A stretch of DNA of 64,000 nucleotides, taken from NCBI GenBank assembly GCA_951406725.2, contig OX597830.1, positions 25,730,001-25,794,000 on the forward strand, written 5' to 3'. This stretch comes from Octopus vulgaris. Taxonomy: Eukaryota. The translations under genes and the position numbers were made by a program. Below the pieces are notes generated by a model. That model made no database searches, was not told the DNA's origin, and worked only from the letters and a program-made list of their open reading frames with translations. Positions 1 to 62,873 of the stretch are shown one piece after another (position 1 is the stretch's first letter; each line of letters begins with the position of its first letter).

Positions 1-695
1 ATCCCTGGCCTGGCAGTGCTACCGAGAAGCGCTACCCGTTCGGGATAAGCTCTACAGACACGGCTCGAGAAACACGGGGCCGACCTGCCCGAGATGCGGT
101 CAGAGCGACGAAACCGTTCTGCACGCACTCGTTCAGTGTCCAACAATTTCCGACCTGTGGGCTTATGTCGAACAACTGCTGTCACGTGTGGGACGAGTCG
201 GTTTATCAGCTGAGTCTATCGTCAATATTGTCACGCCTCCTTCCTTCAAACGGGAAGGAAGAGCTATTTTCATCATCCTTGTGGCTATGGCGAAAGAATG
301 TATCTGGTGGACGCGTCTGAAAGGATTGGAGACAAACACTTTCCTCTCTGGTCAATCTCTCATCAACTTCTTCAAGTACCACTTGAAAAGGAAAGTGAGA
401 GTAGAGAGGCAAGTTTTGTCTAGCGAATGTTTTAAAAAAAGATGGGTGAATGTAGCAAGAATGGCACGTATGAATGACGAAGCCACCTTGAGCATAGTCC
501 TATGAACCCAGAAATCGAAAACAGAGAGTTGCTTATTTGCAAAAAAAAAAAAAAAAAAAAAAGAAATATAAAATGTGACTTCATTGACCGAGGTCACCGT
601 GGTCTTTTCCGTAGGCTTTTCTTTCCACGGGTAAACCTCACCTGTCCTCCCCTTTACACTTCATATTGACATTTCTGTGATAACGATCCCTATTG

Positions 696-726
<31 letters not shown>

Positions 727-902
727 CCTCTCCCCCTTTTTTAACCCCCCTTTTTTTGTCCTCCTTCTCTCCTTTTACGATCCCTTTTGATCGAAACTCC
801 CCCCTTACTTTTTTTTTTTTTTTTTTTAAACATTCAAAAGAAAAGCTCTACCTTGTAATTTGTTCTATCTGTGTGCAGCCCTGTGTGGCTAATAAAGAAA
901 CA
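1..902 (+). mobile_element. L1/Tx1-like non-LTR retrotransposon, 3' portion (copy 1; continues upstream of the window): ORF2 C-terminus plus 3' UTR
   Basis: The frame from nt 2 to the stop at 505 reads SLAWQCYREALPVRDKL...CPRCGQSDETVLHALVQCP (C-terminal CCHC, zf-RVT-like), colinear with 58470-58973. A T-rich 3' UTR follows, with AATAAA at 891-896 and then (TATC)n from 903. Confidence 0.9.
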
Positions 903-986
<84 letters not shown>

Positions 987-4936: not shown

Positions 4937-5521
4937 AATAACCCTTTTTGTTATAGGCACAAGGCCTCAGATTTGTGGGGGAAGGAACTAGTCGATTACA
5001 TCGACCCCAGTGTGTATCTGTTACTTAATTTATCGACCCCGAAAGGATGAAAGGCAAAGTCGACCTCGGCGGAATTTGAACTGTGAACGTAGCGGCAGAC
5101 GAAATACCTATTTTTTACTACCCACAAGGGGCTAAACACAGAGAGGACAAACAAGGACAGACAAACGGATTAAGTCGATTATATCGACCCCAGTGCGTAA
5201 CAGGTACTTAATTTATCGACCCAGAAAGGATGAAAGGCAAAGTCGACCTCGCGGAATTTGAACTGAGAACGTAGCGGCAGACGAAATACCTATTTATTAC
5301 TACCCACAAGGGGCTAAACACAGAGAGGACAAACAAGGATAGACAAACGGATTAAGTCGATTATATCGACCCCAGTGCGTAACAGGTACTTAATTTATCG
5401 ACCCAGAAAGGATGAAAGGCAAAGTCGACCTCGGCGGAATTTGAACTGAGAACGTAGCAGCAGACGAAATACGGCTGCATATTTCGCCCAGCGTGCTAAC
5501 GTTTCTGCCAGCTCGCCGCCT
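4937..5521 (-). mobile_element. SINE family A trimer (head plus three tandem bodies, ~182-bp period)
   Basis: The body block recurs at ~5000-5100, ~5180-5285 and ~5360-5470, separated by the ..CCCACAAGGGGCTAAACACAGAGAGGACAAACAAGGA.AGACAAACGGATTAA.. tail. Confidence 0.85.
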
Positions 5522-9340: not shown

Positions 9341-9917
9341 TTTTTCTACTCTAGGCACAAGGTCCGAAATTTTGGGGGAGAGGACCAGTCGATTAGATCG
9401 ACCCCAGTACACAACTGGTACTTAATTTATCGACTCCGAAAGGATGAAAGGCAAAGTCGACCTCGGCGTAATTTGAACTCAAAGTAAAAATAGCCTAAAT
9501 ACTTATTTCTTAACTACCCACAAGGGGCTAAACACAGAGGGGACAAACAAGGATAGACAAACGGATTAAGTCGATTATATCGACCCCAGTGCGTAACTGG
9601 TACTTATTTAACCGATCCCGAAAGGATGAAAGGCAAAGTCGACCTCGGCGGAATTTGAACTGAGAACGTAGCAGCAGACGAAATACCTATTTCTTTATTA
9701 CCCACAAGGGGCTAAACACAGAGCGGACAAACAAGGACAGACATAGGTATTAAGTCGATTACATCGACCCCAGTGCGTAACTGGTACTTAATTTATCGAC
9801 CCCGAAAGGATGAAAGGCAAAGTCGACCTCGGCGGAATTTGAACTCAGAACGTAGCGGCAGACGAAATACCGCTAAGCATTTCGCCCGGCGTGCCAACGT
9901 TTCTGCCAGCTAGCCGC
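9341..9917 (-). mobile_element. SINE family A trimer
   Basis: Three body blocks, with the same tail-to-body junction (AAATAC(C/T)TATTTCTT) at ~9500 and ~9685. Confidence 0.85.
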
Positions 9918-19663: not shown

Positions 19664-20271
19664 AAGGCAGCGAGCTGGGAGAAACGTTAGCACGCCGGGC
19701 GAAATGCTTAGCAGCTGCCGCTACGTTCTGAGTTCAAATTCCGCCGAGGTCAACTTTGCCTTTCATCCTTTTGGGGTCGATTAAATAAGTACCAGTTACG
19801 CACTGGGGTCGATATAATCGACTTAATCCGTTTGTCTGTCCTTGTTTGTCTCCTCTGTGTGTAGCCCCTTGTGGGCAGTAAAGAAATAAGAGACGTTAGC
19901 ACGCCGGGCGAAATGCTTAGCGGTATTTTGTCTGCGTTACGTTGTGAGTTCAAATTCCGCCGAGGTCGACTTTGCCTTTCATCCTTTCGGGGTCGATAAA
20001 TTAAGTACCAGTTACGCACTGGGGTCGATGTAATCGACTTAATACCTATGTCTCTCCTTGTTTGTCCACTCTGTGTTTAGCCCCTTGTGGGTAATAAAGA
20101 AATAGGTATTTCGTCTGTCTTTACGTTCTGAATTCAAATTCCGCCCAGGTCCACTTTGCCTTTCATCCTTTCAGGGTCGTTAAATTAAGTACCAGTTGCG
20201 TAATTGGATCGATCTAATCGACTGGACCCCTCTCCCAAAATTTCGCATCTTGTGCCTAGAGTGGAAAAGAA
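19664..20271 (+). mobile_element. SINE family A trimer
   Basis: Head AAGGCAGCGAGCTGG followed by three B-box/body blocks. Two copies of tail 1 precede a final tail 2 (..CTTGTGCCTAGAGTGGAAAAGA). Confidence 0.85.
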
Positions 20272-50001: not shown

Positions 50002-50418
50002 GGCAGCGAGCTGGCAGAAACGTTAGCACGCCGGGCGAAATGCGTAGCCGTATTTCGTCTGCCGTTACGTTCTGAGTTCAAATTCCGTCGAGGTCGACTT
50101 TGCCTTTCATCCTTTCGTGGTCGATAAATTAAGTACCAGTTACGCACTGTGATCGATATAATCGACTTAATCCGTTTGTCTGTCCTTGTTTGTCCCCTCT
50201 GTGTTTAGCCCCTTGTGGATAGTAAAGAAATAGGTATTTCGCCTGCCGCTACGTTCTAAGTTCAAATTCTGCCGACGTCGACTTTGTCTTTCATCCTTTC
50301 GGGGTCGATTAAATAAGTACCAGTTATGCACTGGAGTCGATATAATCGACTTAATCCGTTTGTCTGTCTTTGTTTGTCCCGTCTGTGTGTAGCCCCTTGT
50401 GGGCAATAAAGAAATAAG
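50002..50418 (+). mobile_element. SINE family A dimer (both units with tail 1)
   Basis: Head GGCAGCGAGCTGGCAGAAACGTTAG, junction AAGAAATAGGTATTTCG at ~50225-50241, end GGGCAATAAAGAAATAAG. Confidence 0.85.
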
Positions 50419-56000: not shown

Positions 56001-56072
<72 letters not shown>

Positions 56073-56077
56073 CCTAC

Positions 56078-56132
<55 letters not shown>

Positions 56133-56136
56133 GATA

Positions 56137-56949
56137 GGGGCCGACCTGCCCGAGATGCGGTCAGAGCGACGAAACCGTTCTGCACGCACTCGTTCAGTGC
56201 CCAACAATTTCCGACCTGTGGGCTTATGTCGAACAACTGCTGTCACGTGTGGGACGAGTCGGTTTATCAGCTGAGTCTATCGTCAATATTGTCACGCCTC
56301 CTTCCTTCAAACGGGAAGGAAGAGCTATTTTCATCATCCTTGTGGCTATGGCGAAAGAATGTATCTGGTGGACGCGTCTGAAAGGATTGGAGACAAACAC
56401 TTTCCTCTCTGGTCAATCTCTCATCAACTTCTTCAAGTACCACTTGAAAAGGAAAGTGAGAGTAGAGAGGCAAGTTTTGTCTAGCGAATGTTTTAAAAAA
56501 GATGGGTGAATGTAGCAAGAATGGCACGTATGAATGACGAAGCCACCTTGAGCATAGTCCTATGAACCCAGAAATCGAAAACAGAGAGTTGCTTATTTGC
56601 AAAAAAAAAAAAAAAAAAGAAGTATAAAATGTGACTTCATTGACCGAGGTTACCGTGGTCTTTTCCGTAGGCTTTTCTTTCCACGGGTAAACCTCACCTG
56701 TCCTCCCCTTTACACTTCATATTGACATTTCTGTGATAACGATCCCTATTGATCAATTTTTTTTTTTCCTCTCCCCCTTTTTTTTAACCCCCCTTTTTTT
56801 TGTCCTCTTTCTCTCCTTTTACGATCCCTTTTGATCGAAACTCCCCCTTCCTTTTTTTTTTTTTTTTTTTTTTTAAACCTTCAAAAGAAAAGCTCTACCT
56901 TGTAATTTGTTCTATCTGTGTGCAGCCCTGTGTGGCTAATAAAGAAACA
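56137..56949 (+). mobile_element. Tx1-like LINE copy 2, 5'-truncated, near-identical to copy 1
   Basis: Matches 76-902 including subfamily-specific bases. (TATC)n on both sides. A 1-bp loss in the A run at ~56495 shifts the frame. Confidence 0.92.
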
Positions 56950-57010
<61 letters not shown>

Positions 57011-57012
<2 letters not shown>

Positions 57013-58973
57013 TCCTGGTTTTGTGAGCCTCGGAGCCGTAACACTGCTAAAGAAAGATCTAAACAAGGGAAATGTAATAGATAACTTTAAGCCCATCACT
57101 CTGCTTAATGCAGACTTGAAAATTTTGGCCAAGGTGTTAGCCAAGAGGTTGGCGCTTGTCATCGAGAAACTGGTCGACAAGGCGCAAACGTGCGTCGTGC
57201 CGGGCCGGACCATCCATGACAACCTCCACCTGATGCGCTACATCATAGACAGGGTAGTTAACGAACCTGGCATGGGTGGGGCGCTGATCAATTTGGATCA
57301 ATCAACAGCTTTCGATAGGGTAGACCATCGATATTTGGAGGCAGTCCTCAGAGCGGTTGGCTTCGGTCCCGTCTTCCGCGGCTGGATAGCCGCTTTGTAC
57401 AGAGGCATCCGTTCGGTAATTCGCGTAAATGAACATCTATCGAGACCTTTCGACATCGCACGTTCGGTCCGTCAGGGATGCCCCCTCTCGTCGCTTCTAT
57501 ACGTATTGACTCTCGAGTCACTACTGCGGAAGCTGGCGACTCTGAGGGGCATCCCGCGAGAACTGGGATGCGGGACGAGCGTGTCTGCATACGCGGACGA
57601 CGTCACCGTCATAGTGTCTAGCCACGAGCACATCGAGCAGGTCGGCGAGACACTGAAAAACTACGAAGCGGTGACAGGAGCAAAAATCAACCGGGAAAAG
57701 TCAGTGGGTTTGCGACTAGGCACCTGGAGAAGCAAGCCCATGCCGTCCACCAGGGCCTCCGTTGTGGGACGCTGGACCGACGGTCCGGTCGAGTTGCTCG
57801 GGGTCTGGTTCGGTCCGGACCTCCAAATGGAGAAGAACTGGAACGAGATAACGAGTAGGGTGGTCACTCTCGCCCGGCAATGGGCCGAGAGGAAACTGTC
57901 CCTAAAAGGTCGGGCGGAGGAGGCGAACACGTACATCGCGTCCGTCATCTACTACCGCCTGACCGTCGTGCCTTGTCCCGACCCTACCATCACCAAACTA
58001 GAACGCATTCTCTTTCGCTTCTTGTGGAAAGGATGCGTCCCGATGGTCAGGCGATCCATTTGCTGTCAACACCCGTTAAAAGGAGGACTGGGCATGCCGT
58101 GGTTGACGATGCGCAGACACGCGCTGAGACTGCGACATCTCAGGCTCTTCGTAGACGACGGTGAACAGGTGTGGTCGCCGTTTGTGAGGCACGCTTTCCC
58201 GCAGCTCGTCTCCATGACCGAACTGAAATCGTGGATCAAAAAGAGGCCGAGGAAGGGCGAATGGCACCGAGAGTGTCGCGTTGCTCTCAAGCAACTCTGC
58301 CGTCCTGGGTCAACCTTGAGTGACTCCATCACAACCAAAGCATTCTATAGGGGATTAGTGGAGGAGGTACGACGAAGAGCTCGGGGCGAACCTGGACATC
58401 GACGAGGAATACCTGACCCGCCTGTTCGGGACGACTTTCGGGCCAGGGCCCATGGACAACTTCCAGAGATCCCTAGCCTGGCAGTGCTACCGAGAAGCGC
58501 TACCCGTTCGGGATAAGCTCTACAGACACGGCTCGAGAAACACGGGGCCGACCTGCCCGGGATGCGGTCAGAGCGACGAAACCGTTCTGCACGCACTCGT
58601 GCAGTGTCCAACAATTGCCGACCCGTGGGCTTATGTCGAACAACTGCTGTCACGTGTGGGACGAGTCGGTTTATCAGCTGAGTCTATCGTCAATATTGTC
58701 ACGCCTCCTTCCTTCAAACGGGAAAGAAGAGCTATTTTCATCATCCTTGTGGCTACGGCGAAAGAAAGTATCTGGTGGATGCGTCTGAAAGGATTGGAGA
58801 CAAACACTTTCCTCTCTGGTCAACCTCTCATCAACTTCTTCAAGTACCACTTGAAAAGGAAAGTGAGAGTAGAGAGGCGAGTTTTGTCTAGCGAACGTTT
58901 TAAAAAAAGATGGCTGAATGTAGCAAGGATGGCACGTATGAATGACGAAGTCACCTTGAGCATGATCCTATGA
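57011..58973 (+). pseudogene. ORF2 remnant: reverse transcriptase plus C-terminal CCHC finger, +1 frameshift near 58363
   Basis: Motifs NFKPITLLNADLKILAK, LDQSTAFDRVDH, VRQGCPLS, AYADD, GAKINREKS, LGVWF and GGLG, then CPGCGQSDETVLHALVQCP. The endonuclease and a true start are absent: the ORF-track start at 56918 runs through UTR and microsatellite. Confidence 0.92.
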
Positions 58974-59425
58974 ATCCAGAAATTGAAAACAGAGGGTTAC
59001 CCACTTGCAAACAAATGTGGTAACATGCAACAATATTGACCAAGTTTACCGTGGTCTTTTTCGTAGGCTTTTCTTCCCACGGATAAACCTTACTTGCTTT
59101 CCCCTTTACACCATACATCATGAAACTGTGATACACGATCCCTATTGATCGTTTTCTTTTTCCTCTTCCCCTTTTTTTCCTCTTTTTTCTTCTTTTTTAA
59201 TTTTTCTTTTCCTTTGTTCCTTTTCCCTCTTTTCTTTTTTTCTTTTCCTTTTTTTTGCTTTTTTTCCCTTTTACGATCCCTTTTGATCGAAAACCTACGC
59301 CACCCTTTTTTTTATTCTTTTGTTTTTTGTTTTTTTTTGTTGTTTTTTTTTCATCCCCCAAAAGAAAAGCTCTACCTTGTAACTTGTCCCATCTGTGTGC
59401 AGCCCTGTGTGGCCAATAAAAAAAC

Positions 59426-59426
<1 letters not shown>
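57011..59426 (+). mobile_element. Tx1-like LINE copy 3, 5'-truncated, different subfamily
   Basis: Begins directly after (TATC)n and contains RT, zinc finger and 3' UTR. AATAAA at 59415-59420, (TATC)n from 59427. Confidence 0.93.
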
Positions 59427-59505
<79 letters not shown>

Positions 59506-59575
59506 ATATTGAACTAGCTAGCTAGTTAGTTATCTGTGTCTTTTATCTAACTAGTTATCTGTATGTTGTCTGTTA

Positions 59576-59606
<31 letters not shown>

Positions 59607-60067
59607 CTGTCTGTCTGTCTCTGTCTGGCTTCTGTTGGTCTTCTCCTCTCTCCTACCGCTGCATCACCACAAAGAAGTATTTTAAAACGACAAAACACTT
59701 AATTCTTATTTCGACACCTTGGCGAGATTATTCCGGAGAAACAGTACTGTGAAGAATATTGCTGCTGTGAAGAATATTGTAAAAATTTACCATTTTCTTT
59801 GAATGTTTCCAGCCTCCCAGAAGCAATATACGTTAATTGTTGTGTCTAGATTAACGACTTTAGGAAACAAACTTCAGTTTTTTTTTGTACTTTTAGCGAT
59901 TTTTGTGACGCATTCAAACATATGGACATATCTATAGACATATATATATACACACACACGCACACATAGATACACATACACACACATTCTCTCTTTCTCT
60001 CTCTTAGTCTCCCATACACTCACGCGCGCATACAAAGACTCACTAATGCACTCGCTCACGCACACAC

Positions 60068-60102
<35 letters not shown>

Positions 60103-60432
60103 GATACAAACATACACACAAATATACACTATACACATGTTCACACTGTCAAGAAAACACGTATACTCGCACATTCATCCTCTCATACACATGCAAGCAC
60201 ACTCTCATGCACACACAGACATACATACATACATACATACACACACGCAGCATAAACACATTCTCACACAAAGACATACACACACATACAAATTCGCTCA
60301 CACACATATCGCATCGGTATACAATCACACACTCATACACAAACACACACACGCACACACACAGACACTCACGCACACATACACACATACACCACATATA
60401 CATTTTCACGTAAAAACACAGATACACATATA

Positions 60433-60599
60433 TAGGTTCAAGAGTGGCTGCGTGGTAAGTAGCTTGCTTTCCAACCATATGGTTCCGGGTTCATTCCCAC
60501 TGCGTGGCACCTTGGGCAAGTCTCATCTTCTATAGACACGGGCCGACCAAAACCTTCTGAGTGAATTTGGTTGACGGAAAAGGAATGAAGCCCGTCGTA

Positions 60600-60682
<83 letters not shown>

Positions 60683-60906
60683 ATATGTTTGCGTCACTGT
60701 GTCTGTCCCCTCCCCAACATCGCTTGACAACCGATGGTGGTGTGTCTGCGTCCCCCGTAACTTAGCGGTTCTGCAAAAGAGACGGATAGAATAAGTACTA
60801 GGCTTCCAAAGAATAAGTCCTGGGGTCGATTTGCTGGACTTAAGGCGGTGCTCCAGCACGGCCGCGGTCAAATGACTTAAACAATTAAAAGAGAAAGAGA
60901 AAGAGA
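60433..60906 (+). mobile_element. SINE family B, full-length
   Basis: Head, core, (TA)(TG)n insert and tail are all present. Confidence 0.85.
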
Positions 60907-61021
60907 ATACACACTCACACTCTCGCTCACATACATACTCACACACACGTACATACAAATCGTCAAGCATACCATAGGAAAGACACTCACAAACACACAC
61001 ACACACTCACACACTCACACA

Positions 61022-61074
<53 letters not shown>

Positions 61075-61102
61075 ACTTTTCTCTTTCCCTCTCCGTCTTT
61101 CC

Positions 61103-61192
<90 letters not shown>

Positions 61193-61195
61193 GTC

Positions 61196-62519
61196 TGGCG
61201 GGGGCGCAACGAGGCAACAAAGCCACCATTAGGTCTCTGACAGATGAAAAGGGGCGCGAATTACTCGAGCCCGAAAGGATGTGTGATGCATTTCAACAAC
61301 ACTTTGCCCGACTGTTCGGGACAACCGGTGGATCAGAACATAGGATTGACTTTAGTGCCTACCTGCATGGCCTGCCACGACTCTCGGCAAGAGAAGCGGA
61401 GTGTTGTGAAAGACGCATCACAGCCGTGGACGTACGGGATGCGATGGCAGGCTGCGCGGGGGACAAGTCGCCAAGATTGGAGGGTCAGCCCTACGAGCTC
61501 TATTTTATATGCCAGGCTTGTTTGGAGGCGTCTTGGCAGCGGTCTTCTGCAACTGGCTGCAAAACGAGAGTATTTCCGTTTTTGTGAAGCGAGGAGCGGC
61601 GGCACTGCTAAAGAAAGATCCAAACAAGGGGAAAGTCATATATAACTTCAGGCCTATGTCTCTGTTCAACGCAGATTTGAAGATTTTGGCCAAGGTGCTA
61701 GCTGAGAGCTTGGCGCTTGTCATTGAGAAACTAGTCGACAAGGCGCAAACATGCGCCGTGCCGGGCAGGGGTGCCCATGACAACCTCGATATGATGCTCT
61801 ACATCATAGACAGAGTAGTTAAGGAACCTGGCATGGCTGGCTGGAGCGCTGATCAATTTGGATCAATCGAAAGCTTTTGACAGGGTTGGCCATCGCTACT
61901 TGGAAGCCGTCCTTATAGCAGATGGTTTCTGTCCTGTCTTCCGCGGTTGGATCGCTGCATTATACAGTGGCATCCGCTCGGTAGTTCGCGCAAGTGATCA
62001 TCTGACCAGATCATTTGACATCAGTCCGTCAAGGATGTCCCCTTTCGTCGCTTTCCCGCAACTCGTCTCTTGGCCAAACCGCAGTCATGAATCAAACAGA
62101 AGACCGAGGCTAGGCGAAAGGCACCGCGAGTGCTGCCTTGCTCTCAAGCAACTCTGCCGTTCGAGATCAAACTTGTGCGATTTCAATTCTACGAAGGCGT
62201 TCTAGAGGGGATTAGTGGAGGGGGAGGTGCGACGACGTTCTCAGGGAGAATCTTGGCGGCGACGAGGAACACCTGACCCCGTCTGTTCAGGACACCTTTC
62301 GGGACGGGTCCTATGGACAATCATCAGAGATCCCTGGTCTGGCAGTGCTGTTGGGAAGCATTGCCCGCTCGGGATAAACTCTACAGACACGGTTCGAGAT
62401 ACTCGAGATACGTTCAGAGCGACGAAACCGTTCTGCACGAACTCGTGCAGCGTTCAACCATTCGGACCTATGAGCTTATGCCGAACAGCTGCTGTCACGT
62501 GTGGGACGAACTCGGTTGT
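61196..62519 (+). mobile_element. Tx1-like LINE copy 4, older, frameshifted, internally deleted and 3'-truncated
   Basis: Starts after (TATC)n. Includes the pre-RT linker (MCDAFQQHFARLF..KSPRLEGQPYELY), NFRPMSLFNADLKILAK and DQSKAFDRV. Jumps at ~62045 from QGCPLS to AFPQLV and ends after the zinc-finger region. Confidence 0.88.

Positions 62520-62758: not shown

Positions 62759-62873
<115 letters not shown>

Follow-up and report, generated by a model that had tools for sequence, protein, structure and literature searches.

Target-specific insertion at TATC motifs by a Tx1-like retrotransposon group of Octopus vulgaris

A stretch of 64,000 nucleotides from Octopus vulgaris (NCBI GenBank assembly GCA_951406725.2, contig OX597830.1, positions 25,730,001 to 25,794,000 of the forward strand; called the window in the following) carries four copies of a Tx1-like long interspersed nuclear element (LINE) next to arrays of the tetranucleotide TATC. 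By comparing copies across the genome, we found that insertion of this element is target-specific and that TATC is the target rather than a tail encoded by the element. What is recognised appears to be a short motif, TATC(T), which is also found outside of arrays. In the reading that we consider probable, a group of Tx1-like LINEs inserts at TATC in a fixed orientation and register and duplicates the target, and its endonuclease of the apurinic/apyrimidinic endonuclease (APE) type likely nicks the GATA strand. Inside the window only two 5′ junctions are independent, since the TATC repeats upstream of the third copy are at the same time the 3′ flank of the second one. Therefore, copies from the whole genome (2.8 Gb) were needed.

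Insertion at TATC across the genome

A 24-mer from the 3′ end of the element has 8104 exact matches in the genome. In 7122 of these ends (88%), TATCT follows exactly 6 nt past AATAAA. TATAT was found at the same junction in 179 of the 8104 ends, TC flanks were occasional, and poly(A) was absent. An earlier note on the window had described its three intact 3′ ends as AATAAA, 6 nt and then TATC without poly(A), and this arrangement is the rule throughout the genome. In short-read contigs of four public runs, the 3′ end of the element ends in loose GATA repeats as well. The same junction is thus obtained from short reads, and it is not an artefact of the assembly.

To describe the 5′ side, we used the first 100 matches of the 24-mer in their order along one contig (C1), without ranking by similarity. 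At the 5′ junction, a match of 8 nt or more in TATC phase was present in 77 of the 100 copies, and one in GATA phase in none. The chance background for an 8-nt match in TATC phase is 0.7–1.7% of positions (1.6–1.7% in the window). Most 5′ flanks therefore carry TATC and the orientation is not random, which are the two points on which the earlier note had made its proposal depend. Thirteen of the 100 copies lie in tandem behind another copy; among the other 87, 5′ TATC was observed in 65. One 5′ head sequence of full-length elements has 42 exact copies in the genome, and 28 of the 30 that were fetched have TATC on their 5′ side. A Tx1 family has been called target-specific if one sequence type is found at more than 20% of its flanks (PMC4494074; here and below, statements on a cited paper refer to the part of it that was covered). 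The values observed here are 88% for 3′ ends and 77% for 5′ junctions.

The preference concerns the TATC unit rather than microsatellites as such, because AGAT repeats are comparatively rare. In 450 kb comprising the window and its flanks, AGAT accounts for 0.91% of the sequence versus 2.94% for AT, and ACAT, AAT and AC are more abundant than AGAT as well. Many 5′ junctions show a microhomology of 1–3 nt between array and element. Of 31 clean junctions, 10 share at least 2 nt (2–3 nt), compared to 4.7% expected; 24 of 55 junctions, which carry extra or mismatched bases, were set aside for this count.

Sites outside of arrays allow target and element to be told apart. They are rare and were collected by a 3′ flank that leaves the repeat after one unit (50 + 48 matches), and 60 loci were fetched, of which 53 were usable. 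The remaining 7, as well as 14 of 41 loci with two units, were dropped because the 5′ junction lay outside the locus. At 16 of the 53 off-array sites, a duplication of 8–18 bp starts from the TATC position, compared to 1.9 ± 1.3 sites in shuffled controls (maximum 7); the rule allowed at most one mismatch, and some junction microhomology is included. Examples in unique DNA are L222, L223, L236, L252, L258 and L280. Among the 43 informative copies of the 100-copy sample, 8 show duplications of 6–16 bp (shuffled: 1.3 ± 1.1, maximum 7), one of which sits in a TA array. These stricter rules replaced an initial test that had counted trivial matches (13 of 52 versus 7.4 shuffled). For 14 of the 16 off-array duplications, the target itself contains a perfect TATC. 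In L235 and L275, the 3′ duplicate is TATC, and the 5′ duplicate differs from this in its first or second base. In many other copies the duplication is short or not visible, which indicates that the second cut is variable.

Paralogous empty sites were searched with self-matches excluded. The empty paralogue of L250, which lies in L209, contains TATCTTC once. For L167, TATCTATCT is found in the adjacent tandem unit, and the filled site has one more unit on its 3′ side. The empty counterpart of L266 is a common repeat with TATC or an ATC variant, and that of L222 is diverged and reads CATCTTC. Since duplications start at TATC and TATC is also present in paralogous empty sites, the motif was part of the target. 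The claim of the earlier note that the repeats reflect target choice and not a tail is borne out by these two observations.

Several points weigh against this reading. At 23 of the 100 sampled copies, no 8-nt TATC match is present at the called 5′ junction; internal deletions or miscalls account for some of these exceptions, and others have TA, TC, CCAT or TACA flanks. Selection by an exact 24-mer favours younger copies, and all 100 copies are from the initial 18 Mb of a single contig. The presence of TATC on the 3′ side was itself the criterion by which the off-array sites had been collected. At 19 of the 53 off-array sites, neither a duplication nor TATC on the 5′ side was observed, which the proposed reading does not directly account for; rearrangement of the 5′ end, a deletion in the target or TATC supplied by the RNA may lie behind these sites. 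At sites with two units, a duplication could be resolved in only 4 of 27 cases. Finally, no true pre-insertion allele was found, as no joint skipping the element at L236 was among the displayed matches from the contigs of four runs. As a separate observation, L170 and L171 (C1, 8.48 and 9.07 Mb) share an identical 5′ junction, located within a (CCAT)n tract; they probably represent a segmental duplication and are hence not independent.

Mechanism and rival explanations

It has been shown for Tx1L of Xenopus laevis that the purified endonuclease is sequence-specific by itself (PMC1950540). For this reason, we take recognition by the endonuclease as the default. The APE endonuclease would read the motif and nick the GATA strand at or next to the boundary of a GATA unit. 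The reverse transcriptase (RT) would then copy the element RNA from the nicked end, as in established target-primed reverse transcription. RNA cleavage takes place 10–30 nt past AATAAA. As AATAAA is just 6 nt away from the end of the element, the transcript would be cleaved within the flanking repeat of the donor. A few UAUC units would then remain at the end of the RNA, where they could pair with the nicked strand, fix the register and take the place of poly(A). Such pairing would account for the precise junction as well as for the lack of poly(A); the mismatches at L235 and L275 and the extra unit at L167 are weak hints of this step. The second strand is cut at a variable distance of 0 to ~17 nt. 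TATC is left on both sides of each copy, so that later copies of the first family and of its sister family (see below) stack head to tail.

It is also conceivable, but in our view improbable, that the specificity stems mainly from the RNA. In this case, a relaxed endonuclease would cut at many places and only nicks that pair with UAUC units of the donor flank would prime. The exact 3′ register and the absence of poly(A) fit this explanation, as do the mismatched 5′ copies (2 of 16 duplications), the additional 3′ unit of L167 relative to its paralogous empty site and the 19 of 53 off-array sites with TATC on the 3′ side only. On the other hand, the target carried a perfect TATC for 14 of the 16 duplications, the mismatches at L235 and L275 could be later mutations, and the Tx1L endonuclease alone is specific (PMC1950540). 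An extra TATC unit derived from RNA was seen at none of the 27 two-unit sites, a comparison of low power with four resolved duplications. Ends with a single unit outnumber those with two units 50:11 in one pattern class, which also speaks against this explanation, but the other class (48:65) does not agree.

CR1, L2 and RTE elements have a 3′ tail of tandem repeats that is encoded by the element. If TATC were such a tail, the 5′ repeats would result from insertion into earlier tails, which would be in line with the intact 3′ ends of the window all running into TATC and with the 13 tandem copies. We regard this as very unlikely. TATC precedes 65 of the 87 copies that are not in tandem, the motif is present in empty paralogues, and at L236, L252, L258 and L280 a single TATC together with unique sequence is duplicated at the 5′ junction. 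The duplications largely refute the tail. Least credible of all is unspecific insertion with a pattern produced by passive accumulation, as proposed for Drosophila Waldo-A and Waldo-B (PMC3812793), by later growth of repeats or by long-read assembly artefacts: although microsatellites make up ~9% of the flanking DNA sampled, it is refuted by the fixed register, with phase and strand constant, the more abundant AT, ACAT, AAT and AC repeats rarely used and the same 3′ junction in short-read contigs.

Full-length elements, sister family and relatives

In extended genomic loci, full-length elements of ~6.0–6.3 kb were read. They consist of a short 5′ untranslated region (UTR), two open reading frames (ORF1 and ORF2) and a T-rich 3′ UTR. 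The 100 sampled copies have a median length of 560 bp, and 6 of them exceed 5.8 kb. ORF1 encodes ~660 amino acids; a CCHC knuckle (C-X2-C-X4-H-X4-C) is present in both ORF1 types, and a Pfam search of ORF1 gave no match. Elements of the Tx1 clade of the L1 group have a CCHC zinc knuckle of this kind in an ORF1 that is separate from ORF2. ORF2 comprises 1145 amino acids with an N-terminal APE endonuclease, an RT and a C-terminal zinc finger, and ORF2 of L049 matches PF03372, PF00078 and PF13966 in Pfam. ORF2 is open in L039, L046 and L049. In the open copies the catalytic motifs of the endonuclease are intact, and they align with those of the L1 and Tx1L endonucleases, in agreement with the assignment of the element to the APE type in the earlier note. 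A single-sequence fold of the endonuclease reached a predicted local distance difference test (pLDDT) score of 33 and was not used. When the full-length types L039 (C1, 51–58 kb) and L036 were compared, ORF2 and the 3′ part were 97.5% identical, the 5′ UTRs ~70%, and ORF1 could not be aligned. From the sequences, this suggests a replacement of ORF1. At C1, 18,900–58,000, at least six same-strand copies of several families are found within 60 kb of the contig start. Insertions of 25–28 bp that consist of the 3′ tip of the element only were observed at L231, L233, L244, L246, L275 and L316, the last of which is located in a local inverted repeat.

A sister family encodes an ORF2 that is 82% identical to that of the first family at the protein level, and the endonuclease hairpin is alike. 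In 20 extended loci counted by eye, the 3′ end of the sister family runs into TATC at 16, with several terminal sequences, and a TATC array is found no more than ~10 nt away from each of the 12 5′ heads that are visible. Seven of these 12 heads are not behind another copy; five are, and the copy in front is often one of the first family. At the start of full-length heads of the sister family (L329–L341), a TCTGTCTA-like motif is often found; it is similar to the target and could help in joining the 5′ end.

The RT was placed in a quick maximum likelihood tree (IQ-TREE, 65 chosen rows, midpoint root, no L1 sequence), with support given by the Shimodaira–Hasegawa-like approximate likelihood ratio test (SH-aLRT). 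The nearest named relative comes from Argonauta hians and is 69% identical in the RT. Together with it and two unnamed proteins, the element forms a group (SH-aLRT 99) that is sister to relatives of 43–55% identity (SH-aLRT 100). On a long stem, this octopus lineage joins a clade of Xenopus Tx1L and a pol-like protein of Tetraodon (SH-aLRT 94); the octopus element itself stays outside the clade of BAC82605, the Tetraodon protein, and Tx1L (SH-aLRT 99). Judged by sequence, membership in the Tx1 clade is likely, and in this quick RT tree the lineage is distinct from the Tx1 group of fish and frog. BAC82605, which may be a Kibi or Koshi sequence, is 36% identical to the octopus element in the RT and groups with Tx1L in the separate clade. 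Tx1L (P14381) shares the layout of ORF2 and sequence-specific insertion with the octopus element. However, its target is the Tx1D transposon, its RT is 35% identical, its ORF2 has 1308 instead of 1145 amino acids, and in an alignment the hairpin loop of its endonuclease is 2 residues longer. A metagenome scan for relatives with flanks yielded one weak locus (L220). In Patella caerulea, eleven closely related ORF2 relatives (P0102 cluster) were noticed that have neighbouring locus tags and a contig of identical length; this points to another site-specific Tx1-like element arranged in a tandem array.

Human L1 ORF2p (PDB 8sxt) has the same APE–RT architecture (E 1e-53), and L1 also shows target-primed insertion, target duplications and 5′ truncation. 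In contrast to the octopus element, which lacks poly(A) and inserts at TATC, L1 ends in poly(A), and its target, TTTT/AA, is a loose one. Waldo, Mino, Dong and Togen belong to other clades. These non-long terminal repeat elements target microsatellites with units other than TATC, namely ACAY, AC, TAA and TG, respectively (PMC3812793, PMC4640811). Closer in kind are Kibi and Koshi of teleosts, Tx1-clade APE elements specific to (TC)n and (TTC)n microsatellites (Kojima and Fujiwara 2004, as cited in PMC3812793 and PMC4494074). The octopus element works like Kibi and Koshi, but by its target it is neither; the Kibi and Koshi targets consist of pyrimidines only, that of the octopus element is TATC. 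We think it rather unlikely that a cephalopod lineage arrived at microsatellite targeting independently of Kibi and Koshi and chooses sites largely by pairing of read-through repeat units, with the target inherited from its own flank and GATA repeats kept duplicating.

Tetranucleotide microsatellites are preferred by Tx1-clade APE LINEs of crocodilians as well, where Tx1-1_Crp, Tx1-5_Crp, Tx1-6_Crp, Tx1-1_Gav and Tx1-2/3/5/8_AMi are found on (TTCC)n or (TTTC)n (PMC4494074). Compared by description only, they differ from the octopus element in unit (TTCC/TTTC versus TATC) and host (crocodilian versus mollusc). With the behaviour known and tetranucleotide-targeting Tx1 families published, novelty is limited to the repeat unit. 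The targets described amount to ACAY, AC, TC, TTC and TAA in PMC3812793, to which PMC4494074 adds TTCC/TTTC and PMC4640811 adds TG. No report of a GATA- or TATC-targeting LINE was found in the literature searched, which did not extend to Repbase and Dfam, and the targets in Figure 3 of PMC4494074 may bear on this. Thirteen recently active L1-Tx1 families have been described for an octopus, with no target analysis in the part of the paper covered (PMC13282606), and the covered part of PMC8967140 only mentions an L1-Tx1 expansion. With the octopus element, the few APE retrotransposons that are specific to microsatellites gain a new repeat unit and a mollusc host. The way in which elements of this kind locate their repeats has been described as poorly understood (PMC3812793). 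This question can now be tested on over 8000 copies, on two families with open ORF2s and on roughly a hundred insertions outside of arrays, by which the minimal motif and the duplication length are defined. In a genome of this kind, GATA microsatellite markers often adjoin element ends.

Copies in the window

All four copies reported by the earlier note were recovered on the + strand, which reads (TATC)n, at 1..902, 56137..56949, 57011..59426 and 61196..62517 (the last end being approximate). Copy 1 comprises the 3′ part of ORF2 (codons 979–1145, with the zinc finger) and the 3′ UTR and is followed by a (TATC)21 array (903..986). Its start lies ~2.7 kb upstream of the window, behind a TATC array that trails a further copy (L031). 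Copy 2 is preceded by TCTG repeats and a TATC array with a TACC interruption (56035..56130), is 5′-truncated and ends 6 nt after AATAAA. As noted earlier, ~60 bp of TATC (array 56950–57009; (TATC)15 spacer 56950..57010) join it in tandem to copy 3, serving as 3′ flank of the former and 5′ flank of the latter. Copy 3 carries the RT and zinc finger (ORF2 codons 491–1145) with a single frameshift near 58364 and a T-rich 3′ UTR, and a (TATC)19 array follows (59427..59502). Copy 4 stands behind non-element sequence and a (TATC)22 array (61104..61191). It is an old, degraded copy of the sister family that lacks a 3′ end and shows an internal deletion of ~700 bp and several frameshifts; its best matches elsewhere in the genome are 85–86% identical.

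AATAAA is located at 891, 56938 and 59415 in copies 1–3 and is followed in each by 6 nt and TATC, with no poly(A). The 5′ truncation points differ, being at ORF2 codon ~1004 in copy 2, ~491 in copy 3 and ~366 in copy 4. That TATC precedes three different truncation points was correctly noted before; as evidence these amount to two independent junctions only, and the junction of copy 2 carries extra bases (TA GATA). The proposed presence of at least three divergence classes agrees with the identities obtained, which are 99.5% between copies 1 and 2 in the ORF part, 96% between copy 3 and copies 1/2 in the coding part, with a different 3′ UTR in copy 3, and ~77–80% between copies 4 and 3.

A free (TATC)28 array is present at 62759–62870, 240 bp past the point where copy 4 breaks off. 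The window also contains a SINE-like (short interspersed nuclear element) repeat of 182–216 bp, which forms tandem arrays at 4990–5472, 9387–9871, 19680–20104 and 50050–50416. In this repeat, the TATC position is the insertion site of one element copy (L266).

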